Assembly: GCA_000002435.2 (NCBI GenBank)
Contig: CM018791.1
DNA: 64,000 nucleotides
DNA from: Giardia intestinalis
Taxonomy: Eukaryota
Direction: 5' to 3' (one strand)
Shown: positions 20,303 through 37,956 of the stretch, piece by piece
Layout: the number at the start of each line of letters is the position of its first letter
How positions within the stretch are numbered: the first letter of the stretch is position 1
Notes under the pieces: model-generated
What the model saw: only the letters and a program-made list of their open reading frames with translations
What the model was told of the DNA's origin: nothing
Databases searched by the model: none
Program-made: the position numbers and the translations under genes

Positions 20303-21139
20303 ATGTTCCTCTCTCGTTGTCCGTCTGTGTTTTTCAATCAAAAACGGATCTGTCGCTATTTGGGGTTCAGCGACGACTCCTTTGCCGTAGCCGTTCCCAT
20401 TGACGAGCAGCCTGAGCCAATCTATCAACTTTCACCTGCCATCAACATAGATAGTACATCAATCCGATTCGCGCCACCTAACGGCCTTACCTTCCAGTTT
20501 ACTACCTTGAGCCAGGTAATAATATCAGTGCTATTTGGGGTAACGCGGCTCGATACCGGGATGCCCTTAGACTACTCGCTCATTGCACCCGGTCAAGTAT
20601 TCAGCTCAAACAGCGGTCAACCCCAGACCTTTGTTTCGCTATCAACCCAGGGGATTCTTAGATCCAACATTGGCTTGATTGTAGTCAATGTAGTTGGCCA
20701 GACAAGCGAAGCGCAGGTTAATGGCCACTTCTTCCTTCTCAATCTTACTCGGAAAGCCCCCGACAATGACCAGATAGACATTATTGGCTCACGGGTCCGT
20801 ATAGGAGACACATTTTTCGACCTTAAGCACATTTACAGAACCTCTGAAACCCCTGGCGATGCTACATCGACGACAGCCGCATCCAATATCAACGCGCCTT
20901 GCGTCATCTGTATGGGGAAACGGTGCAGCTCTATTCTGCTTCCGTGCCGCCATATGTGCCTTTGTCGTTCCTGTGCTCTTGAATTTCGCCGTAAAGCAAC
21001 GCAATGCCCTCTTTGCCGAGCAGAAGTCTCGTCGCTCATTGATATAAGTGACATATCTAGCGAACTGCCGTTGAGCACGGCCGCTACCGGCGGTAGCACA
21101 GCTCAAGTCGGAGCCGTCTCAAACCAGGCAGTGCTCTAG
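20303..21139 (+). CDS. MGRN1 (mahogunin)-like RING E3 ubiquitin ligase, 278 aa.
   Basis: ATG at 20303 after gaaataaaATG. The C-terminal CVICMGKRCSSILLPCRHMCLCRSCALEFRRKATQCPLCR matches the MGRN1 C3HC4 RING ([40 protein letters not shown], from memory). The N-terminal domain is consistent with a DAR2-like region. Confidence 0.65.
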   Translation: MFLSRCPSVFFNQKRICRYLGFSDDSFAVAVPIDEQPEPIYQLSPAINIDSTSIRFAPPNGLTFQFTTLSQVIISVLFGVTRLDTGMPLDYSLIAPGQVFSSNSGQPQTFVSLSTQGILRSNIGLIVVNVVGQTSEAQVNGHFFLLNLTRKAPDNDQIDIIGSRVRIGDTFFDLKHIYRTSETPGDATSTTAASNINAPCVICMGKRCSSILLPCRHMCLCRSCALEFRRKATQCPLCRAEVSSLIDISDISSELPLSTAATGGSTAQVGAVSNQAVL

Positions 21140-24100
21140 TTGGCGCATTCTACGTGAAAGCATTGGAGACCCCCATCAACATATTTGATGGCCAATTTCG
21201 TTGCGTTTCCAGGGTCAATCAGGCCCTTGCATTTATGACACTTGGTAAAGCTGGAAATATCTACACGGGCCTGTCTATATTTGTCTAGCTCACTCTCTTT
21301 TTGTGATAATTTCATACGAACACTCATAGATCCCATCCCAACCTCTGTCTGCTCAACTACGCGGTGTCCTATAGAATTCGTGATGAAGGGCAGTATAAAG
21401 CTGAGCGGATAATCATGGGGTATCATATTAAGAATATCCCTGTACAAATATTTGGCTATATATGGACGAGACCCGCAGCCTCCCGTTCTATTGTCATTGA
21501 GGAGTGCCATGAGGCAATAGCTAAAGTCAGCCTTACTGATAAGGTTATTGGAGTGGCAGATATCTAACCTCCGTAGGACCTCATACAGCAATGCGGCGGG
21601 GGAGCGAGATGGGTCCCCTGGGAGACTACCCTTTTCTTTGGTTATCTCAGATCGGCTCATCAAGAATGCTATGCAATCCTCTCTTGTCACCATCTCTAGA
21701 TTTGTTTGTACCTTGTCGCTATTCCAGAGCTCGTCGAACTTAGTCGTGCCATTTATATATGCTGGATCCTGCATGATTCCAGTAGCCATACAGGGTGCAC
21801 GTGACGCGGTAATGCACCAAAGAATAAGGTTGTTAAATGCCGATCGATTAAGAACGGGATAACTGGATGTTGGGGCTCCAGACTGCTTAGCTAAAGTAGA
21901 AGAGTCTTGCGCTGTCTTGCGGCTGCCTTCTGCCACATCGGCCTCCAGAAAAGGATAAAGGGCGGCACTGACGCCTGGAAATGCTTTTTCATAGAGTGTA
22001 TTGATGGCAGACGCGGTTTCCTGCAACTTAATACAAGCCAGCAGGTAGGAACCATCAAACGCTGGATTTAGACCACTCAACTGCTTGAGCTTTTTTGTGA
22101 TGATCTGCATTACCTCTACATCGTTAGACTCAGACGATGAGCGCAACTGAAACATTCCAACATGTTGTAACAAAAATGTTATAGCGTCAGATGATAGATA
22201 CGTTTCAATGGTGGCTGACGTTGTTGAAGGAACACTGTTCTTCGTTAGCATAGCATATTGCGCTCCGCAGACAACTATTTGCAGAAGAACATTAACATAG
22301 GGTGCTGTCCTTTTGGTCTCCGTCTTAGACAGATACTTTTGGAGAGTGGCCACAGAAACAGTGGACACAAACCTCTCGATGACCTCTTTTTCTGGCTGCC
22401 TAAAAGATAATGCAGATTTTGCACTGTTTATTTGGAGATTTAACAGCGCATTAAAGAGGTCATCCCCAGAGGTCTTCTCAGCAAGCTTAAGTATACGCGA
22501 GCAATAATCCGGGTGGCCAACTGATAGGTTCGCAAGAATTCCACATAAAAAGCTGGTGACAGACGTATTCTTAAGAGCCAAGACGAAAAACAGAATCGTT
22601 TTGTATAACAGAGACATGGAGTGTCTGCTCACGTGCATGTAGGAGATGGCAAGTACAGCAAGCAGTGTTTTTGTATACTCATTGATAATGGAGAAGTCCG
22701 ATGCCTCAAATAGTGTGGATTTGTATGTGTCGACAAGAAGCTCAATTGATGCGTCTGTGGCAAGGCCCGGATATATCTGATCAAGCGCGACAGAACTGAC
22801 GGCCTTAAATGATCCAGGTGCAGTTTTCTTGTTCTCTCCCGTCCCCACATTCGTCCAGGCAGACCAGTCACGACCAAGAATAGTTTTATTCCCACTAGTC
22901 TTGAAGCTCATCCACCCAATGTATGTCTCTAACGATACATATGCCAAGTCGTAAAAGCGACCCAGCACCAGAAGTCCTATTGTAGACAAGAATATATTGC
23001 TATATTGCGCTGAAGAAAGAAAACAGGCTTGGTTTCCGGTGGAGTTCGTTGGCTGCGTGAGTAGGAAGAGCCTCTGTTGGGGGCGCGATATATGATAGGT
23101 CTCACGAGATAGCAGCATTATGAATAGTGCTCGTAAGGGGAAAATGTTGTGATGATCTATTGCTGTTGGCTTGGAGATACGATACGTCTCAACTATGGTT
23201 TTCGACGCATCTGGCACCTGCCTTTTAGTTTCGTCAATAGATTGTTCCTTTAAATGAGGACGGAACATGCTAACTTTCCCAACAAGTGCGTCCTTGGTTG
23301 TCTCGTGTTGCGCCTCCACTTTGCTGAGTACCCCGTGCAATATAAGATTCCAGGAATCATGCGGATCCAAAATAAGCTTTAGATAAAGAAGGCATGCATC
23401 TAGGCGGCTTACAGTATCTTCATCATTGGCAGGACTGCACGGCAAGTTGAAGCGCTCACTAAGATTCGTTATCTCCAGTTCTGGCGGTAGATCTATATAG
23501 TCTTGCTCACTGGAAACTCCCAGGGCATTCATCACCTTGCACATATCGTCCATGAGGTTATTTATATAAAACAAACTCTGGTCTCTGCCATACCGCACTC
23601 TCCCATCTCCATCAGCGGTTTGTGTATACTGCTCATTAGATAGAACCTGCCTTACGCGCTGAGAATAGCAGCCAAAATTGACACCGTCCATGCACGATTG
23701 GCTTGGCTGGTGCCTTCTTGCTGGTGTGTTCTTCAGCAGTGATATACATTCTAAAGAGATACCATGCAAGAGAATCCCAACTATTTGAAGTGGGTTCACC
23801 ATCCTTGCGTTCATGAATGCTAAAGTAGCGCCCCAGAAGTTCTTCTGGAGCAGCCGTAGAGACCCTGTCAGGATCCAGCAAAGACACCAGTCCCGAGATG
23901 ACATGTCAAACCTGTCTACCAGTGTTTTCTCCAGTTTCCCCTCCACGTACTTCAGTAGCTTAGGAAGGCTATCTTTTGCGTGTGTGTTCTTGTCCACATC
24001 TAGAAGGCTAGCACGAATCTGGCGATATAAAGAGGTGCGCTTTATTGCAATTAGTGACATGTTTGTGTGGACGTAAAAGATATTTGTGTCACATGGAAGG

Positions 24101-26379
24101 CAGTTGGGCTTGCCCATGAACATGTTTGTAAGACCGAATATGTGGGAGTTCCCGGTGATAAACGCTGGCACTATCCCTTTGACCATATATTTGCGATCCG
24201 GAACAGGTGGCTGCTTTAATTGCAGCACAGAAACAGACTCAGTTGTCTCCTCGACATAGTTCTTCAACGGTTCCTCCGACGATATTATCTGTTGTAGCAC
24301 AAGGCTCTTCGTAGATTCAGGAAGAAGGTCATGCAGCCCTATAGCAAGTCTGTAGAGCTTGTCTGTAGCAATAATAGATGTGCTGGGGTCCTTGCCATAC
24401 AGCATATTATAGTAATTCCAGATGGATGGATTAGGCTCCTCCGCACACTTATCTGTATCGATGTACGTGTATGGCCTGTTCTTCTCTCCTAATCTTACTC
24501 TCAAAATATAAGGTAGTGGGATGTACGCTCCGCAATTTTTGGTTTTTTGTACATGGATTGAGAGCTCATGATCCAGTTCATCCACTGCTTCTGGCTGCGA
24601 TTCGTGCTCATGGTTATTTGCTTCTTTCCCAGAAAATTGAAGAGCCTTTCTGACGGCCTCAGCCATGGAAGTAGACAAATACCTGAGATCAGACTCCAGC
24701 AGACGTGCAGGGCATCGTAGCAATCCATACTTTGCAGCTTTAGAGAGGGCCTGCACACAGACAAATAGCTCGGGACCCTTTGAAGTGATGACATTACTAT
24801 TCTCAGGGGGCTTTCCCTTCCACTCCAAGTCAACAATATTGCCTGTGAAGACGGAGCTATCCTTCTTGAGATTATTGGCGTCTCGAAGTAGATTGAAACA
24901 CAGTCTGGGGTACTGAGATATGGCCTTAATGGTGGTGCTACCGCCGTAGCTATCCTTGCCATTAGCCATGCGTAGAGATCCCCCGACAGCATCAACAGAA
25001 GAATCCTTTAACGAGCGCTCGGAAGGAATCCCCTTTAGTATTCTATTGTGTGTGTCGCGGTCATCAAGAAAAGATAGATTCATCCGTCTGACTATTTTCT
25101 CAATTGGGGTTCCTTTCTCAGTTGCGTCTGCACGCAGCGCCTCATGAGAAGCGTGGCCGTTGTCTGCCCACCCATAGCTATACATGACTGTCCCAGCGTC
25201 GTATCGGTTACAGAAATTCCGGTCCATCTTCTCTCCGGCACACAACCTCAAATAGATTTCGTGGAGAAGCTGGTTCTTGAGCGCAGAGTCAACGTACGTG
25301 GGTTTCTCAAGAGCAAACAGAGCATAGTCAGAAGTCATCACATCCGTGAGAGGGGTTTCCGCAACGACATTCAGTACTAGTTCACCAAGGTACTTCAAAT
25401 TTTGGTCTTTGAGAACCCCAATCCTGTCTAAGGAGGTGGGGGTTGAAAGGGACGCATCATGTAGCATACTAGTAAAAGTCGTGAGGTATATTAGTTTTCT
25501 GATGTCCATGCTCATAACCTGAAGTTTGTTAGCAAGCATGTTTCGCTGGGCAAAGAAGAGATATTCTCCAACCCAGGCATACGAATTGAGGGTCTGCCCT
25601 ATGTCCAGCAACATTATGTTGAACCGAGATAGATTCTCTGTAGCTGGCTCGTAAGAGAACTCAAGAGGGTTGATATTCTTTCTGGCAGAAGCTACCTTGT
25701 TATCTATGAAGGAGACGGTACTGGTTTGGTACTGAAGAGATGACACAGGTAGGGGGAAGGCAGCAACAGGCTCTTTACTTGTACAGAGCACCACAGACAT
25801 GCTTGTGCCAGAGCCCAGGCCTCCCCCTTCCTGAATCACAATGAAATCAAAAAGCCCATGGCGTAATGTGTTGAGGCATGGTCGCTTAGATGCTGATAGT
25901 GCGCGCTGCATGAGAGCTGGATTGGTTGAAATGGGGGCATAATAGATAGACCTCTGGGATAGATCTATGATCTCCGTGTGAGTCACATCGGGAAAGCGAA
26001 TATAGACCGGCTCATATCCACAGCAGTGAGGTACCAGAGCAATAACATTCGGAAGAGACGTAAGCTCATGGGATGCCATTGTCTCGGTATTGACGGCATG
26101 GACGGCTCGGTCCACATGTGCCAGTATGAGATTGACCTCAGGATAGACCACAAAACTGTGTATTTGTGTCTTGAAAGAGAGTGAACCTACACTCGTTACC
26201 TTGCGGGTGCTCGAAAAGGTGTACCGCTTTAGAACGCTTCCAGACTCTACTGTATAAATGTCCCCAGGAGAAGTGACAACGCATGCGTTGAGCATGCTGC
26301 TACTGATAAGAGTCTCCAACTGAAAAGGGCTTGCTTCTGCCTTCATATTTATTTTAATTTTCCACAACTGTATTTCCAT
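21136..26379 (-). CDS. Large hypothetical protein (1747 aa). Possibly a Vps39/Vam6- or Vps3-like tethering-complex subunit (tentative).
   Basis: Uninterrupted 5.2-kb ORF with ATG (cat) at 26377-26379. The extreme C-terminus CHKCKGLIDPGNATKLAIKYVDGGLQCFHVEC resembles the terminal zinc-finger of Vps39 (C-x2-C-K...I..N..A..Y..G...H..C, recalled from memory). The N-terminal third looks beta-rich. The product assignment is low-confidence. Confidence 0.7.
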   Translation of the reverse strand: MEIQLWKIKINMKAEASPFQLETLISSSMLNACVVTSPGDIYTVESGSVLKRYTFSSTRKVTSVGSLSFKTQIHSFVVYPEVNLILAHVDRAVHAVNTETMASHELTSLPNVIALVPHCCGYEPVYIRFPDVTHTEIIDLSQRSIYYAPISTNPALMQRALSASKRPCLNTLRHGLFDFIVIQEGGGLGSGTSMSVVLCTSKEPVAAFPLPVSSLQYQTSTVSFIDNKVASARKNINPLEFSYEPATENLSRFNIMLLDIGQTLNSYAWVGEYLFFAQRNMLANKLQVMSMDIRKLIYLTTFTSMLHDASLSTPTSLDRIGVLKDQNLKYLGELVLNVVAETPLTDVMTSDYALFALEKPTYVDSALKNQLLHEIYLRLCAGEKMDRNFCNRYDAGTVMYSYGWADNGHASHEALRADATEKGTPIEKIVRRMNLSFLDDRDTHNRILKGIPSERSLKDSSVDAVGGSLRMANGKDSYGGSTTIKAISQYPRLCFNLLRDANNLKKDSSVFTGNIVDLEWKGKPPENSNVITSKGPELFVCVQALSKAAKYGLLRCPARLLESDLRYLSTSMAEAVRKALQFSGKEANNHEHESQPEAVDELDHELSIHVQKTKNCGAYIPLPYILRVRLGEKNRPYTYIDTDKCAEEPNPSIWNYYNMLYGKDPSTSIIATDKLYRLAIGLHDLLPESTKSLVLQQIISSEEPLKNYVEETTESVSVLQLKQPPVPDRKYMVKGIVPAFITGNSHIFGLTNMFMGKPNCLPCDTNIFYVHTNMSLIAIKRTSLYRQIRASLLDVDKNTHAKDSLPKLLKYVEGKLEKTLVDRFDMSSRDWCLCWILTGSLRLLQKNFWGATLAFMNARMVNPLQIVGILLHGISLECISLLKNTPARRHQPSQSCMDGVNFGCYSQRVRQVLSNEQYTQTADGDGRVRYGRDQSLFYINNLMDDMCKVMNALGVSSEQDYIDLPPELEITNLSERFNLPCSPANDEDTVSRLDACLLYLKLILDPHDSWNLILHGVLSKVEAQHETTKDALVGKVSMFRPHLKEQSIDETKRQVPDASKTIVETYRISKPTAIDHHNIFPLRALFIMLLSRETYHISRPQQRLFLLTQPTNSTGNQACFLSSAQYSNIFLSTIGLLVLGRFYDLAYVSLETYIGWMSFKTSGNKTILGRDWSAWTNVGTGENKKTAPGSFKAVSSVALDQIYPGLATDASIELLVDTYKSTLFEASDFSIINEYTKTLLAVLAISYMHVSRHSMSLLYKTILFFVLALKNTSVTSFLCGILANLSVGHPDYCSRILKLAEKTSGDDLFNALLNLQINSAKSALSFRQPEKEVIERFVSTVSVATLQKYLSKTETKRTAPYVNVLLQIVVCGAQYAMLTKNSVPSTTSATIETYLSSDAITFLLQHVGMFQLRSSSESNDVEVMQIITKKLKQLSGLNPAFDGSYLLACIKLQETASAINTLYEKAFPGVSAALYPFLEADVAEGSRKTAQDSSTLAKQSGAPTSSYPVLNRSAFNNLILWCITASRAPCMATGIMQDPAYINGTTKFDELWNSDKVQTNLEMVTREDCIAFLMSRSEITKEKGSLPGDPSRSPAALLYEVLRRLDICHSNNLISKADFSYCLMALLNDNRTGGCGSRPYIAKYLYRDILNMIPHDYPLSFILPFITNSIGHRVVEQTEVGMGSMSVRMKLSQKESELDKYRQARVDISSFTKCHKCKGLIDPGNATKLAIKYVDGGLQCFHVECAN

Positions 26380-26831: not shown

Positions 26832-29800
26832 ATGTCGATTCAAGGGTCCTATAAGCCGCGTAAGCCGAAGCTCGGTCTGATATGCATGGACAAAAAGGCG
26901 AAGTCCGAGCCGATGAAAGCCTTGCTCTCAAAGCTCAATCATGACGATTACCTCGATATAGTTGAGTTTCCTGAATGTATGCTATTGAATGAAGATATAG
27001 ACAAGTGGCCCGCGGTGGATGTCATCATTGGGTTCCATTCAAAGGGTTTTCCTCTAAGAAAGGCTATAGCATATGAAAGACTACACCGCCGCGCCCTTAC
27101 CATCAATTCCTTGAGTGACCAGAGGGTCCTGCTGAGCAGATTTGACGTTTATAGACGCATGGATCAGCACTCAATTCCCACATGTATGCACATACTTTTA
27201 GAGCGGGAGCCGCCAGCACCAGAGCGCATATGCGATGCATGCAAAGCCATCATGCTCAAGACAGGGAATTCGGAAACACGAGCTGATTCCATTTGTTGCA
27301 CTTGCAAATATAAGGACCCTCCCGGGTTCATAGACGAAGGTGAGTACATAGAATATGAGGGCACACGAATCTACCGACCATTCTTAGAAAAACCTCAGGA
27401 CAGCGAAGACCATAATATCTGGATTTATTACCCTTCGGTCAAGGGTCCACTTACAGAGGCAGGCGAAAAGCCCAGGTCTGCTCGACAGGAAGGAGTTACA
27501 AAGCTCTTCAGGAAGGTTGATAATAGATCTTCTGTTTTTGTGGAAGGCTACTTCCCCATTCGTCGAAATGGCTCCTATGTCTACGAGGCATTTCTGCAGC
27601 CGGAGGGTAATACAGATGTCAAAATCTATGCTATCTTTCCAAACTACATCCTTGCAGAAAAGCGAAAAGCCCCACACATTGACGGTGTTGTCCTGCGAGA
27701 CCCTGAGACTCGCAAGGAGGTGCGTGAGCCTACTGAGCTGACCAGTAAGGAGCGCGATATCTCAAACCTCATCTGGCGCGCGTTCAAGCAACGCGTCTGT
27801 GGTTATGACTTTATCCGCTCTGGCAACAAGTCCTACGTCTGTGATGTCAATGGCTGGTCCTTTGTGAAAACTAACTCCCACTATTATGACAACTGTGCAC
27901 GAATCCTTCGAGAGCTTATCCACCAAGCACTAAACATTGATCAAAGGGCTCTCACAGTGACGTATGGCCTTCAGCTGGAAGAGTATTGCTTTCGTAAATA
28001 TGAGCACGATACTACGACGACAAATGTCGGCGAGTACACATACAAAAGCTCCAACAAGTACTTCATTGACCATGGCTATCTGAAGGTTCTAGCCAACAAG
28101 AAGAGCTCTCTATCTCAAAAGATCTCTACGTTTTTAATGAGCAAGGACGTCTTTTCATCGTCAAGCTCGTCAGGACCGTCCAGTACAGACAGCTGTGCTC
28201 CAAAGTCTTCTGAGCTACCTGCTTCCGAAAGCAAGGCCCATGTCTCTTTTGGGGACTACGTAGGATGCACAATGAAACCGCGAGGCCTTGTTTCAATCCT
28301 ACGACACGGAGATCGCATCCCTAAGTTTAAGCTCAAAATAACATCATCTAATAACAGCCTTTTCAAGATATTTGCCGGTATTCTTGATCGCGATGTTGAG
28401 CTAAAGGAGTATAACAGACGAGAGGAGGAACTGCGCGACTTTGTGCTGAGACCAGAGTACTCTGTTGGCCGTGCAGAGGAAATAGCGACCACAATAAGCT
28501 CTATCTTAACGGAAATAGGCTATGACCTGATGGAGTTGGAGACAGCTCCACTCCTTACTGAATCTATCGACACTTCCTATGACAGCCCATCGTCCTCCTC
28601 TGCTGAGTGCGACGGGGGCCCTGAAAAGGGTGACTGTTGCTCTGTACGAGAGAAAGTTCGCAAGCATCTTACCATGGTTCGTGATGGGATTTCCATCAAA
28701 CTGTCATCCCTGAAGATATTAAAGTCCTTACCTCAACATAGACAGTCCGAGCCTTCACTTATATCAGAGACTAACACAGAGGCTAGCAGTGCAACTCAGT
28801 TTACAGATGCAATTTTCTTTTCAACACAAGAGATTGAGGCTCTAAAATTGGCTTATGCATTGCTCCGCAATGAGATTGCAGGCACAAAGATTCAGCTTAG
28901 GGTGGTCAAGAAAGCGCCTCTCATGTTTCAGATGATAATCAAGTGGGGTGGGTATCTATCCATCGCAGGACTTCGCCAGTCGTTTCTGATGGGCAAACAG
29001 ATCAGGCGAATGTTCCTGACATACTTTGATGATCCTGCAACGTACTTTAGAGACAAGGATGCGCTAACTGCCTCCTTGCGCCGAGAAGGTACTGCTCCGT
29101 CTCAGCCTCCAACCAATGTGAGCTCTCCACTCATAGCCCCCAGAGCCACTCCCCTTCAAGATGAGGACATTGGCAGCGAGGCACAGGCGGCCATTCGTGA
29201 AAAGCGGTGCCGTCTGTTTAGTCAGATACTCCACGTGTTCTATGGAAATGAGCGACGGGTGAGGAAGACGGCCATAGGTGTGCTGCTTGGAATCTGCGCT
29301 GACATAGATGCAGAGATAGACGACATCTTTCCGTGCCTATCTAACTATGACAGCTATGAATTAGCACCCAATGCATTGAAGCTACTCAACAAGCTATATG
29401 GGAATGATCAGCCGCTACCGTACATTCACCTCTATCCCTCGCAACTGTCACAGATCCTTGTGGAGGGAGGAGACATTCTAGCATCAAAGTCCAGGTTAGT
29501 TACAGCTGCGATGCGAGCAGAGCAGCACAAGATCAACGAAATCCTTAACAGAACGGTCAGCAGTGTTGACAAGTTCTTCTCAAAGACTCCTGGGTCTGCC
29601 ATACAATCAACTAAAATTTCAAATGATTGTGCACATTCTGCAATTCTTTCGTTAGATAAGTTAGCTAACAAGCATGCTTTCAATGTTGATCACAATACAG
29701 AGACAGAGTTATGCCCTGTTCCCGATTTCACGACTTCCAATTTAAACGGAACCCTCGCCTGCGAGTCTACTCCAAATATCCCAGCCTTTCAGAATGATAC

Positions 29801-32800
29801 GCACTTACCTCACCAAGCAAGAAGGCTATTAATGAACGTCGTGGATAGCAGCCGTACCTTGGACTATAGCGATTTCTTGTGTGCACGCACTGGTCGAGAA
29901 GCATCAGGCAGGTCTGTTAAAAAGTCAATCATGAACATGTTTTCTTCGGCCTTCTCTACTACCCCTACGGGTACTACTGCAGCCGAGTCATCAAGCCTCA
30001 CTTCCCACTTCAAGAGGCCTTCCAGCAAATTACCAACGGTTTGTTCCCAGCCAGGCTTGGAGCTATTATGTCCAGACCAGAAAGAACTTACTGCTTGTAC
30101 AGAGCTTGAAGTAAGCACCAGCTCTGATCTTCTATCTGCACGTACAGACCTTTCTACCATGTATAGTCACAGAAGCATATCACCAAGCAGTAAGCACGAG
30201 CTTGTTCCCCAATACGCCTTAGCTGAACCGGCAGCTGAGATGACTGACTCAAGTGTCACGAATCATGCAGCGCTTAGGTCGCAACCAAATCATGGTCTAT
30301 GTCCCAGGGATGTAGCAGCAGACTACGCTTATACTAGACCGCAAGGAGCGCTTATTAGCTTAAGCAGAGAGTGTTCTGAGCCGGACAGCATAAGAATTCT
30401 TGAGGCGCCCCTGCCCGTAGATTCTCGGAGGCATGTTCCGGACAAGTATGTCTCCACAGTAATGCAAGCCTTTCGAGGCTGTCTCCGACCGACGACATTC
30501 GCACTACATAGGGATGCCGCGTATAGTATCTACACCAGCATGAAAACCTTTATCAAAGAAGCCCAGAGGTTTTTAGCTACAGATGGAGCCACGAGTAACA
30601 CCTCATTTAATTTGAGCAAGATCTACCGCGATTTCGGGGACGAAATTTACCTTAAATCATCCAGACCCCTAGACTGTGAGAAGCTATGTACCAATACTTC
30701 AGCACCTGACAATTCAGTTGTGGCTACTCAAGGCTTCGTAGAAAATCAAGATCAGCTGGACCCCAAGCATACTCAGATTTGCCCTTCTAAATTGCCCATA
30801 AGAATTCAGTCATCAAAGATTCCAATCTTATCTCAACTTAAGTTTGTTCTTAAAAGCATGAGGAAAGACGGATACTATGACTTTTCAAAGCTTGTGGACA
30901 TTTATCAATGCCTTAGATTTGTAAGCATACACTACGATAAGCTGGCATATATGGATAGCTTTAATAAGTTATATAAACACGTAGAACTTTACGCACAAAA
31001 CTTAGCATACTACAACTATGGAGTGCAGGAGCTGGACCGTGGCCGCATTGCTTATAGCATAGGTGGCATGCTTTTGGATGCCGTGCTTGGAGACCTCGTT
31101 CAGTACACATTGCGATTGACAAAGAAACAGAGTGCACAGCACAGGCGCATGCTTTTAACAGAATCTAGCACTGGCGGTATTGCTGAGTCCAGCCTTGATT
31201 GCAAGGCTCAACATGCTGTAACGTCGATAAGCTCTACTGCACAGATGTGTGCCTCTGCGGGCGACCAGCATGGCACACCGAAGGACGAAGAGGGTCTTTC
31301 AGAACAAAGCATGCTTGCAGAGATTTATGTCGGCGGTGAGGCTTATCTCCATGCAACAATCAATTTGCTGCTCTCTCAGGACCATTTGCTGCCATTTTTA
31401 GCCAAAGAACGGTGTATAACCCGCAATATCTCGTATCTTGCCAATGTACACTTTGTTCTTTGGGAGCTGTCTAAGCCGGGGCTTGACCCAACTTACCTGA
31501 TGGAGACCTTCTTCTCTCCTGGAACAACGAGTGATATCTTTCAGCCTAACACGCATAATACCCAACCAATTGACCAACCAGAAACCCTCATACACCCCAT
31601 CCCACTCCAGTTTCTCAACGGACTCGTGAGCAAGTCCATACGGCAGGCACAGCAAAAGAAGACGTCTGAGCGACTTCTCTCAACGGTCTGCGTGTTGAGG
31701 CATGCCGATCGAACACCGAAGCAGAGGCTTAAATTCAGAGTCCAAGATGAACACCTAGTTGTTAGCATAATGGCAGAGCTCTCGTCAAGTCCAATTGCAC
31801 CGGCCGACGTTACTTTGTGGAGCGCTAATCACACGGATAAAAAGCTAATAGACGCCATATCTAAAATCATAGATGGACATATTGCTAGATTGGCCAGCTT
31901 ATGCTACGAAAGCGGCACTGGACCTGCAAGTTCGTCAAAGAGCGACCAGAACCTTCTAGCTAATCTGAATGATCTCTTGACAATTATAAGGAATAATCCA
32001 CCAGCACTAAAAATTCAGGTCAAGTTCCCTACACCATGGAAGGGTGTGAAGGTCCTTACACTAATTGCCAAGTATGGGGGATTATTAACTAAGATGGGGA
32101 CGATTCAAAGCCGACAGTGTGGCCAGCAGATTTTTAGAACCCTCGTTGACGATGTCCTTGACAACGAAGAGTCCAATCAGACCCCTGAGCAGCGCCTCAA
32201 TTATCTCCACTTCCTCATTCGTACTTGTAGGGTTTACTGCAATGATGAACCCCGAGTTCGAGAAACAGCAGAAGAGTGTGTGTCACGCATTGTTGAGTGC
32301 TGGAACTCTCACTTGGCTGGCGACAACAAAGATGGCATCATCCACTGGGACAAAACTAGCGTCACAGAACTCACAATGCTTTCAGAAGTGGACAAGTATG
32401 CACGATCACTGATAGACGATCAAAAGCGAACCCTTAACGAGGCTCTGACAAGCAGCGTTAATCTGTCAAACGCAAACCCCAGCACCCTGTCTCCAACGCT
32501 CCGGATGCTTCTCCGCAACATACCCCCCACAACCCAGGTGGAACTGCAAATACCAAGCCTCCGCTTGGGAACTCTTAAAGACTTACTTTTTAAATTGATT
32601 AGCGACTATGAGGAGTTCTTCCTCAACTCAAATGCAAATAATAAATCTTGCGGCGGAACCCCAGACGAAGTGGATAATGATAATGAGACCCCAGAAATTG
32701 TATTGCTCCGCATGCGCTCGATTGCCGAGAGTTTCTACAAACGCAAGGACGGGTCGTACGATGTAAGCAAGATATCGGATATTGTAGACCTTCTGCGCTA

Positions 32801-33383
32801 TGAAGTTCTTCAGCGACGAGCCATTCTAACAACGGATATTCAGAACACACTAAAGCAGGCCTGGGACGCGGCTAAGATATTAGCTAAAGTCACTGTTCAC
32901 CAGGAGTTTGGGCTGGCAGATCTCTGGAAGTTCGCCATTGCATCTCTAATCTGTAACGACTTGTTGAAGTATATTATCGATGATCTAAAAAGTCCGGGGT
33001 TGCTCTTCTACTTCACTTCTGAAAGCCATCTGCACGGGCTCCTAAACCTCCTATTATGCTCTCCTATCTCCAAGTGCCAGGTTGAGCGCGACTCTGTGTC
33101 TAGTGTAGACTTCTTATCGCATTTCATTTTTAAGGCGTACACAGACTCCAGCGATGGTAGATGTTCACGAATTGAGGTATACTGGAGTCGTGGCAGTGCA
33201 CACTCCCCCTACAAACTGGACACGTCGAGCTCAGAAAGCGTTCTGCGTGTCCAGGAGCCCATTCTAATGTCTGATATCTTGATTCCTAGCGATCTACAAG
33301 ATATGCTAGACAGTAGCAAAGATATCATTGATTTAATAAAAGCTAGAGACGCCGATCTGATGCCACTCTTGCCCACAATGTGA
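26832..33383 (+). CDS. Diphosphoinositol-pentakisphosphate / inositol-hexakisphosphate kinase (PPIP5K/Vip1 family), 2183 aa, with two tandem histidine-acid-phosphatase-like domains.
   Basis: The N-terminal ATP-grasp region aligns closely to PPIP5K. [16 protein letters not shown]...[26 protein letters not shown] matches IGVCAMDVKARSKPCRNIL...[31 protein letters not shown] matches [33 protein letters not shown] matches [23 protein letters not shown]. There are two RHxDR phosphatase motifs: [11 protein letters not shown] (nt 28302-28316) and [14 protein letters not shown] (nt 31698-31715). Each is followed by a KWGG/KYGG motif, as in the PPIP5K phosphatase-like domain. Confidence 0.9.
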   Translation: [2183 protein letters not shown]

Positions 33384-33411: not shown

Positions 33412-36400
33412 TTAAGTTGCGAAGTCGACCCAATACTCGTCTAATTCTGCACTTGTCGGTATCTGCGTGCCAACCTCCATCACCTCTGCATCTGCTGGTC
33501 TTGCCATGGTCACAAACGGCAACCGGAGATTGACGTCCCCACAGGGGGCGATGCTTTCAACATATCTCTTGCACTGCTCGTAACGGCATCGGTGCCTGAG
33601 GGGAAAGTTTCCCTCACGAAACTGGAAGGGGAACCGTCGTGAAACCCAGCTCTTGAATAGCTCAAATGAGTACTCGTCCTTTCCGAATTCAGATGCTATG
33701 AATGCACTTTTCTGCTCCACAGCCTCTAACTTTATAAAGCAGTCCTTCTGTTCTATCTTAGAGATACACTCAGAGCAGACACACCTTCTACAGTAGTGGA
33801 TGTACGGCTGTCTGTTTGCTAGTTTAAACGACGACTGTGTGTAGTCCTCCACCATGTGTTGATACACTGTGTCTGGCTTATTGTGGTTGTGGATAGACGT
33901 CCCCGTGCTAGTACCTAGATCCTCAACAGTATAGGCTGTTGTAGCAGACACTGCGGAGGAGCGCATGCACTCATCCAGGTAGAGGGCGTTGAAATATCCG
34001 TCACTAGATTCATCATACTGGATTGTTACGTCAAACGACACCTGCTTATGATACGTGTTCATTTCCAAGAGAAAGCGTAGATCTTGGAGTTTGCCAACCT
34101 TATATATCTCTTCGGTTAACTCAAATGCCGAACCGTTCGCACCGAGGTACTTGCACCACTTATCCTTTTGCTGGAACTGCTTTATGGACATGATGCCTGG
34201 GAGCGATACTTCTGGCTTCCGCTGGTGTGAGCAACACAATGGAGTCAATGCTTCAGCAACTTTCTCCTTTATTGCTTTACGATATCTTGCCGAAGCACCT
34301 ATGTTAAGCCACGACAATTCAGCTATTGGTATAAGTGCCACGGGGGTGTTACCATTGGCATGAAAGTAAAACTTGAGACCAGCAGACAGAGGCACAGCTG
34401 TTTCAACAGACGGCTCGGTATCAAAGTGCTTATATGTTTCAAAGCATTCTTCAGACTCCGTGTCTAACTCTTGTATGCATACGGTGTTGGAGGTGCGGCG
34501 CTTGTCAAACACAGCCATGTAGCTGTTTGTTGAATGTTCCTCATTGAGATCTCGCGAAACCAGCGGTATCTCGTCATCCAGCTGCACTGAGCTGACCTTT
34601 TTGTTACTCATGGTTGCGCGTTTGACAAGTACGCTTCCAGACACCTCCGGTGCTTTTGAAGTTGTCTTTTCATTGGCAGCGCTCAATCCTTGTGGGAATA
34701 CAATGGTTGGGATCTGCGTGACGCTTGTCTGTTGTGATTTTAGAGACGCCAAAAGAGCATCGTTGATAATTTCACCTGTGGGTAGTTCCTTGAAGACGTC
34801 ACCTCCGCACGTATAACATGGAGATGCATGCCTAATGGTTACGTCATAGTTTGTATCAATATTGTCGCTTAGCTTAACCCGGCGCTCATTTTGACAAATA
34901 CAAATGCAGTGCGGCTCGACTTTGTCCACTATGGTAGTACCGAGAGGAGGGAGGATTGCTTGCTTGTTATTTAGAACATAGAGGATAGTAAGGAACTTCC
35001 CTATAACACCTATATTCTCTCTGTATTGGAGAAGAAGCCTGTCACCGCAGTATCCGAGAATCCTCGGTAGGGGGAGCGTAGGATAAGGAAGCAATTCAGC
35101 TGCACTTGAAACAGCATATATCTTTGCCAGCAAGCACCTGACAGAATAGGAATGAGATCCGAGAATGGCCTGTGTAGATGCTGTTGTTATCCGAATGTGA
35201 GACGACTGATTGGCGACATTTGTCGGCAACTCAGGGAACTCTCCCAGTATCATGCTTTGAAGAGAATTTAGGGTATCACGCTTATTAATTACAGCAGAAG
35301 CGTGGCCTGAAGGGGCTACTGCAGGCGTCACGCTGTGTCCTGGCGTCTCATCCATGTATGTCAAGAGCCCTGGTATATCTGTGGGTAGGTCACTCTGCTT
35401 TTGCGGGATGGCTTTGTTTGGGGACGACTGGGGATACACAGGAGTTTCATACTTATATTGACAAGAGTTTAGGGGTGGGGTTATTAATGATGCACTGTTA
35501 CGTTCCGTGTGTAGAGGAGATGTCAGCGTTACTTGTTGCACAATTGAATCCAGGTGAGCCTGATTTATTCCATCCATGATGCCACCGTCCTGGTAGCTTT
35601 TCCCGTCAACTGAAACCCTTGCCGCCTGCTCACTGGAGGGTAGCACGTGCCCGGATTCCTCTAGATTGATAAGTGAGTCGTTTGCATGAAAGAACTCAAA
35701 CAGGTCCTTTTCTTGTTTTGAAATTACCTGTACGCTCATTGATTGTCTGTTTGTGATACTGCTTAGCGTACTGGCTCCACTCATGCGTGCCTGATCTTTG
35801 TACATATCGCTCTGAAGTTCTTCATCATCGACATTAGCTGAAGAAGGGAGACAGCACTCTGCACTCGATCTCCTCATGTTGGGCAAGTTAGGAAATTGAG
35901 TTCCGTAAATAGCTGAATCTTTTTCTGATGCGGGCTTAGGTTTAGTAGCGAGAGGAGGGTTTAAGAGGAGAGCAGTGCCACTTAACTGTGAGATTTGACC
36001 GGATTGCACAAAACCGGATTGAAGCTCTTTCAACTCAGGAGTTGCACACAGTGTAGACGAAGCTTGTACTGCTTCCTGGGTAGTCAGCTCCACTGTAGGA
36101 CCAGATATCGCTGATTGTTGGTCAGGCAGAGTGGTAGAACCATCCAAGGGTTGATCCTGCCGATTTTTGTACACAACCACATCCTCCTGTGTTTTCTTCA
36201 GCCTGTCAATGGCCTTCTGCACAGAAGACCTTGTCTCATACCTCGACATAGCTTCTATATTGTCCATCTCTGGCTGAATACCTGAGATGAGCGCCAGGCG
36301 TGAGTGCAAACGTATCTCCTTCTCTGAAACTGGGAGCCAGCGAGGATCCATTTTGAGTATGTACTGTATGGTGCTGCTCCCGTTGTTAGAGACCTGAGCC

Positions 36401-37956
36401 ACGTTACCACACGTGTTACAGAAGCCGTTCTTGAAGAGACGGCCTTTACACATCTCACAGCGCATATCTTGATCTGATACTTTGACGAGATTTGCTCTGT
36501 TGGCCATTATGTTCGCCATTGCTGTCTTCCCATTCACAGAGTACATGGTCATATAACGTAGCCACAAGTCACAAAGATCCTTAGTCAGTACCTCTGCTGT
36601 GAAGCAATTTTGTCCTAGAGTAAATTCAATTGTCCGCTCACCTATTCGTGTAATCTTTAGATTGGTCGACGTCATGTCTATTTCGCCCTTCTGAACCATT
36701 GTGGACACATCAATATAAAAGAGTCGGGGAAAATCCGTAAGCACAAAACGACGTTGCTTGGGAAGCCGAAGCACGCGTCTTTTAACCACATCTATGCTGT
36801 ATATGATGTTCTCGCCAGGAATTAAAAATCTACGCAACGGAGAATCCTTGGAGCGATATTCGCTAGTATCTATCAAGTTCAGCATATTGGCTTGATCTGA
36901 ATTCATAATTTTAGGCACTTTCATGTGTTTAAACTCCTGCAGATCAGAAAATACAATGGAAGGATTGAAAGGAGGCATTTGGTTGTTGAGATTGGCGAAG
37001 TCCACGTTATGCTCAGTAAAAAACGGGTGCTTCTTAATGGCCCGCCAGCCACCGTTGAAGCGTTTAGTGGGGTCTTTTGTCAACAAGCGTTTTATTAAAT
37101 CTGCTGCATCAGGGCTCACGGTCTTCGGTACAATCACCTTTTGCTTCTCTATCGCCTGCATAATAGCAAGCTCAACGTCTCCCATGAAGGCAGGCATCCC
37201 TGTCAGACACTCATAAAGGATACACCCGAGACCCCAGACATCTTGAGGAGACATGTAGAGGAGACCATGCCTATTTGACTCTGGGGCGTTGTAGCAAACC
37301 GTGCCATATATGCTACATCTGGGCTGTTGGTCCATATTCTGCAGTTTCTTCTGCAAGGTACCCTGAGAATCATTACTTGCAGCTGCTGAAGAGGTAGACA
37401 TATAGGCAGAGGGTGGAAAAGACTTGGTGCCGATAGCCATAGACACCTCATCGAGAGGCAGCTGCTTAGAGGTCCCGAAGTCAGCAATACGAACATGTCC
37501 GCCACGGGTAAGAAGGATATTCGATGGCTTAATATCTCGGTGGCAGTATCCGATGCTGTGAAGGCCTTCTAACCCCAGAATGATTTCTGCAATTAAGAAC
37601 CGCGTCCAATCCTCAGGAAGCACACGGTAACATTTTATTAAGCTAGAAAGATCTCCCAGGCTTGCATACTCCAGGATAAGCGTTGTAAAATCGTTTTTGT
37701 CAGTCTTTGAATAGAGGCGAATTATATTGGTCAGGTTTTTGTTTTGCGCGGTCCTCAGTGCTACTACTTCCCGATCCAAGGTGTACAGAAGCTTGTCGTT
37801 CTCCAATGCTTTCCTATTAATTACCTTTAGCCCTACCTCCAAGCCTGTTTCTGCATCGATGGCGCGATATACTTTGCCGTAGCTTCCTTCTCCAAGGAAG
37901 TCTATAACATCAAATCCTGGAAAGTCGCCGGTTGTGCTCTGCTGTTCAAAAGGCAT
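33412..37956 (-). CDS. AGC-type Ser/Thr protein kinase, PDK1-like, 1514 aa. It has a kinase domain, a PDK1-type PH domain and a long C-terminal extension.
   Basis: ATG (cat) at 37954-37956 with AT-rich upstream aaaaattaaattgcacaATG. Kinase motifs GEGSYGKVY, HRDIKPSNILL, DFGTSK and APE are present (DFGTAK in PDK1). The segment RRVLRLPKQRRFVLTDFPRLFYIDVSTMVQKGEI...WLRYM resembles the PDK1 PH domain (RRQLLLTEGPHLYYVDPVNKVLKGEI...). The C-terminal region contains C-x2-C...C-x2-C (CEMCKGRLFKNGFCNTCGN). Confidence 0.8.
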   Translation of the reverse strand: MPFEQQSTTGDFPGFDVIDFLGEGSYGKVYRAIDAETGLEVGLKVINRKALENDKLLYTLDREVVALRTAQNKNLTNIIRLYSKTDKNDFTTLILEYASLGDLSSLIKCYRVLPEDWTRFLIAEIILGLEGLHSIGYCHRDIKPSNILLTRGGHVRIADFGTSKQLPLDEVSMAIGTKSFPPSAYMSTSSAAASNDSQGTLQKKLQNMDQQPRCSIYGTVCYNAPESNRHGLLYMSPQDVWGLGCILYECLTGMPAFMGDVELAIMQAIEKQKVIVPKTVSPDAADLIKRLLTKDPTKRFNGGWRAIKKHPFFTEHNVDFANLNNQMPPFNPSIVFSDLQEFKHMKVPKIMNSDQANMLNLIDTSEYRSKDSPLRRFLIPGENIIYSIDVVKRRVLRLPKQRRFVLTDFPRLFYIDVSTMVQKGEIDMTSTNLKITRIGERTIEFTLGQNCFTAEVLTKDLCDLWLRYMTMYSVNGKTAMANIMANRANLVKVSDQDMRCEMCKGRLFKNGFCNTCGNVAQVSNNGSSTIQYILKMDPRWLPVSEKEIRLHSRLALISGIQPEMDNIEAMSRYETRSSVQKAIDRLKKTQEDVVVYKNRQDQPLDGSTTLPDQQSAISGPTVELTTQEAVQASSTLCATPELKELQSGFVQSGQISQLSGTALLLNPPLATKPKPASEKDSAIYGTQFPNLPNMRRSSAECCLPSSANVDDEELQSDMYKDQARMSGASTLSSITNRQSMSVQVISKQEKDLFEFFHANDSLINLEESGHVLPSSEQAARVSVDGKSYQDGGIMDGINQAHLDSIVQQVTLTSPLHTERNSASLITPPLNSCQYKYETPVYPQSSPNKAIPQKQSDLPTDIPGLLTYMDETPGHSVTPAVAPSGHASAVINKRDTLNSLQSMILGEFPELPTNVANQSSHIRITTASTQAILGSHSYSVRCLLAKIYAVSSAAELLPYPTLPLPRILGYCGDRLLLQYRENIGVIGKFLTILYVLNNKQAILPPLGTTIVDKVEPHCICICQNERRVKLSDNIDTNYDVTIRHASPCYTCGGDVFKELPTGEIINDALLASLKSQQTSVTQIPTIVFPQGLSAANEKTTSKAPEVSGSVLVKRATMSNKKVSSVQLDDEIPLVSRDLNEEHSTNSYMAVFDKRRTSNTVCIQELDTESEECFETYKHFDTEPSVETAVPLSAGLKFYFHANGNTPVALIPIAELSWLNIGASARYRKAIKEKVAEALTPLCCSHQRKPEVSLPGIMSIKQFQQKDKWCKYLGANGSAFELTEEIYKVGKLQDLRFLLEMNTYHKQVSFDVTIQYDESSDGYFNALYLDECMRSSAVSATTAYTVEDLGTSTGTSIHNHNKPDTVYQHMVEDYTQSSFKLANRQPYIHYCRRCVCSECISKIEQKDCFIKLEAVEQKSAFIASEFGKDEYSFELFKSWVSRRFPFQFREGNFPLRHRCRYEQCKRYVESIAPCGDVNLRLPFVTMARPADAEVMEVGTQIPTSAELDEYWVDFAT

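Follow-up and report, generated by a model that had tools for sequence, protein, structure and literature searches.

PPIP5Ks are described as kinase/phosphatase switches that set 1,5-InsP8, an inositol pyrophosphate (PP-InsP), and control phosphate and energy signaling. Published accounts present them as dual-domain proteins with one phosphatase domain per polypeptide, and surveys count the Giardia gene as an ordinary dual-domain PPIP5K (PMC8024741, PMC12694804). Here, we analyze this gene in a 64,000-nucleotide (nt) stretch of the Giardia intestinalis genome (assembly GCA_000002435.2, contig CM018791.1), hereafter referred to as the window. The protein encoded at 26832..33383 is the sole Giardia PPIP5K/Vip1 orthologue and has the order kinase, first phosphatase domain (PD1), second phosphatase domain (PD2). 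Judged by its sequence, it departs from the one-phosphatase-domain definition yet remains a member of the PPIP5K family. The features of the gene are the following (aa, amino acids; +, plus strand).

26832..33383 (+): complete open reading frame (ORF), 2183 aa plus stop, identical to GL50803_103074 / XP_001709835.1 / KAE8302864.1
26865..27929 (+): PPIP5K kinase domain (PPIP5K2_N plus ATP-grasp), aa 12-366, from Pfam PF18086 and phmmer
27942..28268 (+): kinase-PD1 linker, aa 371-479, 19% Ser, weakly conserved in the alignment
28269..31631 (+): PD1, the first PPIP5K-type histidine phosphatase domain, with large inserts, aa 480-1600, from hhalign, AlphaFold2, and Foldseek
31665..33380 (+): PD2, the second, canonical PPIP5K phosphatase domain, aa 1612-2183, from Pfam, hhalign, and phmmer

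The protein resembles PPIP5K/Vip1/Asp1/VIH enzymes such as human PPIP5K2 and Saccharomyces cerevisiae Vip1 (ScVip1; structures 3t7a and 9grh/9grn/9gro) in its N-terminal PPIP5K2_N and ATP-grasp kinase. Like canonical family members, it also carries, C-terminal to the kinase, a branch-2 histidine phosphatase with an RHxDRxPK loop, a GAF-like insertion, a KWGG hinge, a helical insertion domain, and a Glu at the proton-donor position. Unlike canonical PPIP5Ks, it has two tandem phosphatase domains rather than one, ~620 aa of disordered inserts within PD1, and a Giardia-specific Cys-rich insertion in the kinase; its kinase-PD1 linker is ~110 aa long compared to ~15 aa in yeast (PMC11836120). Neither a PPIP5K with two phosphatase domains nor a discussion of PPIP5K in metamonads was found in the literature searched, the coverage of which was incomplete. 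A 2026 review of PP-InsP phosphatases is silent on two-phosphatase-domain PPIP5Ks, and nothing relevant to the gene identifier was found in the same literature. Domain databases would show both phosphatase matches for less divergent homologues.

A first-pass annotation of the window, made from the letters alone, had proposed a single long frame encoding a kinase followed by two phosphatase-like units. The ORF indeed runs uninterrupted through 2183 codons, with no internal stop or frameshift, and its translation shows 0 differences from that of GL50803_103074 of G. intestinalis WB (P0267), a gene originally annotated as hypothetical and now named inositol-hexakisphosphate/diphosphoinositol-pentakisphosphate 1-kinase. 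The corresponding ORF is 2197 aa long in assemblage B, 2171 aa in a third G. intestinalis-like lineage, and 1897 to 1911 aa in G. muris, all from independent assemblies, and the three share the kinase-PD1-PD2 layout and the flanking genes. These data bear on the possibility that two genes were fused into one long ORF by an error of assembly or annotation, or that the second RHxDR arose by chance. PD1 scanned alone does fall slightly below the Pfam cut-off (His_Phos_2, 21.7 bits, E = 1.5e-4, N-terminal part only; cut-off, 23.6 bits), and no homology could be detected for the central 415 aa, which are predicted to be disordered. An artefact is nevertheless hard to reconcile with a frame that is unbroken along its whole length and with a layout and synteny repeated in these independent assemblies. 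In addition, the proportion of nonsynonymous differences in the inserts (pN, 0.25) is well below that of synonymous ones (pS, 0.64), as in translated sequence under some constraint, and hhalign E-values of 1e-20 to 1e-32 exclude chance similarity. A frameshift or assembly join between 29500 and 31500, which the first-pass annotation had named as a sign of two fused genes, was not seen: the interval is in frame and is also present in three G. intestinalis lineages and in G. muris, with pN well below pS. We therefore regard an artefact as having next to no chance of being the explanation.

Both phosphatase units contain the expected motifs in the expected order: RHGDR (nt 28302) followed by KWGG at aa 704, and RHADR (nt 31698) followed by KYGG at aa 1747. 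The positions within the two units are as follows.

28302..28316 (+): PD1 catalytic loop RHGDR, aa 491-495, putative nucleophile His492, then IPKFKLK (motif, alignment)
28326..28931 (+): PD1 segment between RHGDR and KWGG, aa ~499-700, equivalent of the PPIP5K-specific GAF insertion (alignment, model)
28941..28952 (+): PD1 KWGG hinge motif, aa 704-707 (motif, alignment)
29577..30821 (+): PD1 large disordered insert, aa 916-1330, with a predicted local distance difference test score (pLDDT) below 50 over most of its length and 54% identity between assemblages A and B
31338..31352 (+): PD1 EAYLH, aa 1503-1507, where Glu1503 corresponds to ScVip1 Glu991 and Tyr stands in place of His993 (alignment; PMC11836120)
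31698..31712 (+): PD2 catalytic loop RHADR, aa 1623-1627, putative nucleophile His1624 (motif, alignment)
32070..32081 (+): PD2 KYGG hinge motif, aa 1747-1750 (motif, alignment)
33021..33035 (+): PD2 ESHLH, aa 2064-2068, where Glu2064 corresponds to ScVip1 Glu991 (motif, alignment)

The relationship between the two units is distant, with only ~25% identity. BLASTP of PD1 against PD2 returned three collinear high-scoring segment pairs, and Pfam on the full protein found His_Phos_2 in two stretches. Comparison of PD1 with PD2 alignments by hhalign gave a probability of 99.3% (E = 1.1e-20) for the N-terminal halves and 99.9% (E = 1.7e-32) for the C-terminal halves; against PD2 plus canonical PPIP5K phosphatase domains, both halves of PD1 scored 98 to 99.9%. 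In the PD1 model from AlphaFold2, 646 of 1121 residues are predicted to be disordered and pLDDT averages 49; only the structured cores (pLDDT of 70 to 90) are usable. The only significant Foldseek matches of this model were crystals of the ScVip1 phosphatase domain (9gro, 9grn, and 9grh; probability of 1.00, target-normalized template modeling score of 0.45 to 0.53, entire target covered); generic phytases and acid phosphatases scored lower, with nonsignificant E-values. The fold of the model, hhalign, and BLASTP thus all bear out two tandem phosphatase-like domains, as opposed to a single His_Phos_2 unit accompanied by a chance RHxDR. The residues that place a protein in branch 2 of the histidine phosphatases, R491, H492, R495, the equivalent of R688 (AppA R92), and Glu1503 (E991), are all present in PD1. 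By alignment and model, PD1 appears to be a complete PPIP5K-type phosphatase module with a core fold, a GAF-like insertion, and a helical domain.

Most of the extra length of the protein comes from the disordered PD1 inserts (aa 561-670, 746-790, 916-1330, and 1446-1494; ~620 aa in total), and their disorder accounts for the low mean pLDDT of the PD1 model. The proposal that long Ser-rich linkers explain the size of the protein stands as far as low-complexity inserts are concerned; the inserts are only moderately enriched in Ser (13 to 19%, compared to 10% in the whole protein).

The first-pass annotation took one phosphatase domain to be the rule among PPIP5Ks, and this was upheld: 110 of the other homologues retrieved carry exactly one RHxDR and one ESHxH. 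The two-unit layout was detected in G. intestinalis assemblages A and B and the third lineage, in G. muris (TNJ28398.1), in Kipferlia bialata, in both Carpediemonas membranifera paralogues, in Blattamonas nauphoetae (KAK2951193.1, P0008), in Paratrimastix pyriformis (KAJ4460437.1), and in two fragments. In Blattamonas, hidden Markov model scans placed a degenerate first unit between the kinase domain and the canonical unit. The second Blattamonas paralogue, Paratrimastix, and the two fragments were added by an exhaustive HMMER search with a PD1 profile in 1.84 billion representative proteins; 142 of the 146 newly retrieved top matches had a single unit. Across these metamonads, the PPIP5Ks share the kinase-PD1-PD2 order with orthologous PD1 and PD2, and the largest PD1 inserts by far are found in Giardia.

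In a neighbor-joining tree of the individual units, the PD1s of Giardia and Kipferlia formed a clade (92% bootstrap), as did those of Preaxostyla and Carpediemonas (86%), and the PD2 subtree matched accepted species relationships. PD1 and PD2 of the same species paired in 0 to 2% of bootstraps, and lineage-specific duplications were rejected on these grounds. BLAST rankings were concordant, with the PD1s of other species coming first. A recent internal duplication confined to Giardia is the simplest reading of the Giardia sequence alone; it is contradicted by the low identity between the two Giardia units, by the PD1 orthologues in Kipferlia, Carpediemonas, Blattamonas, and Paratrimastix, and by the 0% bootstrap for the Giardia PD1-PD2 pairing, and we consider it very improbable. 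Because PD1s group across species and never with their own PD2, we conclude with near certainty, as far as alignments and trees can tell, that a single tandem duplication of the phosphatase domain preceded the split of Fornicata and Preaxostyla, and that both copies were retained in the architecture described above. The internal tandem duplication proposed from the Giardia sequence is thus real, and it is an ancient event common to Fornicata and Preaxostyla rather than one that took place in Giardia. Some features of the tree tell against a single origin: all metamonad units formed one clade with a bootstrap of only 51 to 57%, all PD1s did so in just ~20% of replicates, and the trees are distance-based, with long PD1 branches.

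Three of the retrieved models have features of their own. The Blattamonas nauphoetae protein P0008 (3258 aa) contains a phospholipase-B-like domain (PF04916) besides kinase-PD1-PD2, with the kinase beginning at aa ~684, and its gene model may be a fusion. The Paratrimastix model P0122 begins within the kinase domain and looks truncated. The fragment P0124 (1397 aa, from a Joint Genome Institute metagenome) comprises a C-terminal part of PD1 with DEAH intact, followed by PD2 with a Giardia-like RHADRSPKQRLKF and KYGG. It is positioned between Kipferlia and Giardia in the tree and, by its sequence, probably comes from an unsampled diplomonad-like organism.

The residues required for phosphatase activity have been determined for ScVip1. 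R547, H548, and R551 are essential (Raia et al. 2025, PMC11836120); D550 steadies the catalytic loop via H836; hinge residues P553, G646, and G647, together with K554, K644, and the GAF residues E576/K623/Q625/K627, are required for activity; E991 occupies the proton-donor position; and His993, long termed the second catalytic His, lies outside the active site (PMC11836120). We rebuilt the ScVip1 numbering from the Protein Data Bank alignment and mapped the tested residues onto PD1 and PD2; the N-terminal columns of fragments P0123 and P0124 were forced alignments and were disregarded. The RHGDR loop of G. intestinalis PD1 aligns to R547-H548-x-D550-R551-x-P553-K554, and its GAF-equivalent segment, which includes the variable insert at aa 561-670, keeps the equivalents of K623, Q625, and K627 (as Arg). 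The state of PD1 in each lineage, in ScVip1 numbering, is as follows.

G. intestinalis (three lineages): R547, H548, D550, R551, P553, K554, K556, K558, K623, Q625, K644, G646, G647, R688, H836, and E991 kept; K627R
Kipferlia: all kept but G646A
G. muris: RSGDR; K556W, K558A, K644S, E991I
Carpediemonas: RYADR; GAF K/Q/K triad lost; E991T
Blattamonas (two paralogues): SPCER and QFAEN replace RHxDR
Paratrimastix: RHGDI; E991G

As can be seen from this list, PD1 has lost an essential residue, the mark of a pseudophosphatase, in G. muris, Carpediemonas, Blattamonas, and Paratrimastix, where it is predicted to be catalytically dead; in G. intestinalis, no such loss was found. The PD1 loop is degenerate in those four lineages and intact in the window protein and Kipferlia. 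The PKxKxK stretch is kept in nearly all PD1 copies, and P553 and K554 are kept in all of them. The first-pass annotation had asked whether one copy is catalytic and the other a pseudo-domain, and the answer is lineage-dependent, with PD1 dead by its residues in four lineages and equipped with the full catalytic set in G. intestinalis. A reading of the ESH-to-EAY change in G. intestinalis PD1 as the loss of a catalytic His was rejected, since the residue that matters is the Glu, His993 being located outside the active site (PMC11836120).

PD2 is the better conserved unit. Scanned alone, it scored 60.6 bits with His_Phos_2 against the 23.6-bit cut-off, and it matched canonical domains with hhalign (E = 1.8e-56) and 9grn with phmmer (3.4e-13). 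The traits of the PPIP5K GAF insertion (K623/Q625/K627, the P553/G646/G647 hinge, and Glu991) are found in PD2 as well as, with K627R, in PD1. In every metamonad, PD2 is canonical at all mapped ScVip1 positions, the exceptions being the Zn ligands H651 and H836 in Giardia and G646 in G. muris. Giardia PD2, unlike ScVip1, lacks these two of the four Zn ligands (H651 replaced by Lys and H836 by Gln); PD1 retains H836. The aligned animal PPIP5Ks also lack H651 (Pro in its place), and the Zn site is thus not universal. In G. muris PD2 (L001 6001-11694), the hinge Gly G646 is replaced by Asp, giving KYDG.

Selection on the individual parts was estimated by comparing assemblages A and B. Identity was 88 to 97% in the structured blocks of PD1, 94% in the kinase, 90 to 94% in PD2, and 37 to 63% in the inserts. 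Synonymous sites were saturated (pS of 0.64 to 0.81, with several synonymous rates, dS, undefined); we therefore relied on the nonsynonymous rate (dN) and on pN compared to pS, and treated dN/dS only as bounds. The dN values were as follows.

PD1 cores: 0.039
Kinase: 0.033
PD2: 0.059
PD1 inserts: 0.304

These values indicate that PD1 of G. intestinalis, whose cores change as slowly as the kinase, is, on sequence evidence, under strong purifying selection and not a decaying relic.

The PPIP5K family is characterized by 1-kinase activity toward inositol hexakisphosphate (InsP6) and 5-InsP7 and by 1-pyrophosphatase activity toward 1-InsP7 and 1,5-InsP8. By homology, the ATP-grasp kinase of the Giardia protein would phosphorylate an inositol polyphosphate or pyrophosphate, installing the 1-beta-phosphate that PD2 would take off again via a phospho-histidine intermediate on His1624. 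The role of PD1 common to metamonads we infer to be non-catalytic, because four lineages lost the nucleophile or its partner Arg yet kept the domain. Since PKxKxK is retained in nearly all PD1 copies, this shared role is most plausibly the binding of an inositol (pyro)phosphate, or intramolecular regulation or scaffolding next to the kinase. In G. intestinalis, PD1 may in addition still bind substrate and act as a second pyrophosphatase, possibly with altered specificity, because of the changes around Glu991 and at K732. That PD1 of this species is a functional ligand-binding site is, in our judgment, rather likely; whether it is also catalytically active we consider an even call. The kinase-PD1-PD2 account as a whole, including this functional reading of PD1, we favor by a modest measure.

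Several observations weigh against a catalytic G. intestinalis PD1 and the account that includes it. Canonical and PD2 domains share 44 columns with a conservation of 90% or more; PD1 keeps 31 of these and is off-consensus at the other 13. The changes cluster beside Glu991 (TSESH to GGEAY) and at K732Q, R804Q, D828Q, and E796S, with K732Q, R804Q, and D828Q belonging to the outer site, and the Zn ligand H651 is absent. PD1 catalysis can be dispensed with in at least one species, the sister G. muris, whose PD1 is dead by its residues (RSGDR, E991I). Finally, the activities of both PD1 and PD2 in metamonads are predictions from sequence. The main alternative is that PD1 is an inert pseudo-phosphatase in G. 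intestinalis too, with regulatory, ligand-sensing, or scaffolding functions only, and that PD2 is the sole active phosphatase. It would agree with the retention of PD1 after the loss of the nucleophile His or the essential Arg in G. muris (RSGDR), Carpediemonas (RYADR), Blattamonas (SPCER/QFAEN), and Paratrimastix (RHGDI), since metamonad-wide retention needs no catalysis, and with the large inserts, the missing H651 ligand, and the off-consensus surroundings of Glu991 in G. intestinalis PD1. Set against it, every residue whose change inactivates ScVip1 is intact in three G. intestinalis lineages despite saturated synonymous sites. The intact set includes H548, K556, K558, Q625, K644, and E991, all six of which are replaceable, as judged from G. 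muris, without loss of the domain. Kipferlia PD1 likewise keeps the essential residues, except for the hinge substitution G646A, and their maintenance therefore spans the entire line of descent to G. intestinalis. Retention of these six positions in both organisms argues for continued selection on the PD1 active site. We consider an inert G. intestinalis PD1 the weaker proposition, though one with an appreciable share of the probability.

A further possibility, which we regard as somewhat doubtful, is that PD1 forms a distinct second site, being either a pyrophosphatase of other positional or substrate specificity or an intramolecular inositol-pyrophosphate receptor that tunes the kinase and PD2. 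If so, a three-module self-regulating PP-InsP switch would have evolved in metamonads ~1 billion years ago, and PD1 catalysis would later have been dropped several times while sensing was kept. A different PD1 specificity would suit an organism reported to have no IPPK and hence perhaps no InsP6. Giardia is listed with one IPK, one PPIP5K, and no IPPK or ITPK1 (Laha et al. 2021), and its physiological substrates may thus differ from those derived from InsP6.

The kinase-PD1-PD2 arrangement with a binding or regulatory PD1 has a parallel among other phosphatases. Receptor-type protein tyrosine phosphatases (PTPs) carry two phosphatase domains in a row, of which D1 is active and D2 is inactive or regulatory. 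Both they and the metamonad PPIP5Ks have tandem phosphatase copies, one of which has repeatedly lost catalytic residues yet was kept, and the retention of a degenerate tandem copy would imply a regulatory or binding role. The likeness is an analogy only: the PTP and histidine acid phosphatase folds are unrelated, as is their chemistry, and the divergent copy of G. intestinalis, unlike a degenerate D2, retains its catalytic residues. Roles of pseudophosphatases are summarized in PMC13573052.

A whole eukaryotic supergroup (Fornicata plus Preaxostyla) has thus held on to a second phosphatase module over a very long period. By its residues, this module has lost catalysis in several lineages, and in the human parasite G. 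intestinalis, it is fully intact and strongly constrained. Its contrasting fates provide a natural experiment on non-hydrolytic roles of the PPIP5K phosphatase domain, for instance in sensing ligands or controlling the kinase. The two-phosphatase layout may be a shared derived character of metamonads, and it makes the G. intestinalis enzyme structurally unlike PPIP5K1/2 of the host.

The kinase domain itself aligned as convincingly with PPIP5K as the first-pass annotation had held. It scored 88.9 bits with Pfam PF18086 (PPIP5K2_N; cut-off, 35 bits) and matched the human PPIP5K2 kinase domain 3t7a with E = 3.5e-70 over aa 5-366, as well as the yeast/fungal kinase domains 9gr8 and 8e1h (phmmer). 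The motifs TDVKIY and CGYDFIR and a third stretch are kept in the alignment to 3t7a. We take the active-site residues of PPIP5K kinases to be the Lys of DVKxY, GxD, and the Asp/Asn of CDVNGxSFVK, as in PPIP5K2 structures. The kinase contains one more feature, identified from the alignment.

27231..27311 (+): Giardia-specific kinase insertion of ~30 aa, CxxC...(C/H)CxC, aa ~134-160

This insertion was found in three G. intestinalis lineages (CDAC...CCTC) and in G. muris (CEAC...HCTC) and was absent from the aligned Carpediemonas, Blattamonas, fish, and algal PPIP5Ks; its Cys pattern makes it a candidate zinc knuckle. A second, smaller insertion at aa ~205-221 is specific to G. intestinalis in the alignment.

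The PPIP5K gene is flanked by two genes on the opposite strand. The product of the divergent upstream gene (21136-26379, minus strand) is 1747 aa long and belongs to no Pfam family. Synteny of this gene extends to assemblage B, and its G. muris orthologue, 34% identical, occupies the same position, suggesting that the product is a conserved Giardia protein. The product of the convergent downstream gene (33412-37956, minus strand) is 1514 aa long and starts with a protein kinase domain and a PH domain of the PDK1 type (PH_3), the remaining ~1000 aa having no Pfam match. The stop codon of this gene lies 28 nt from that of the PPIP5K gene, and this neighbor is kept in assemblage B and the third lineage.

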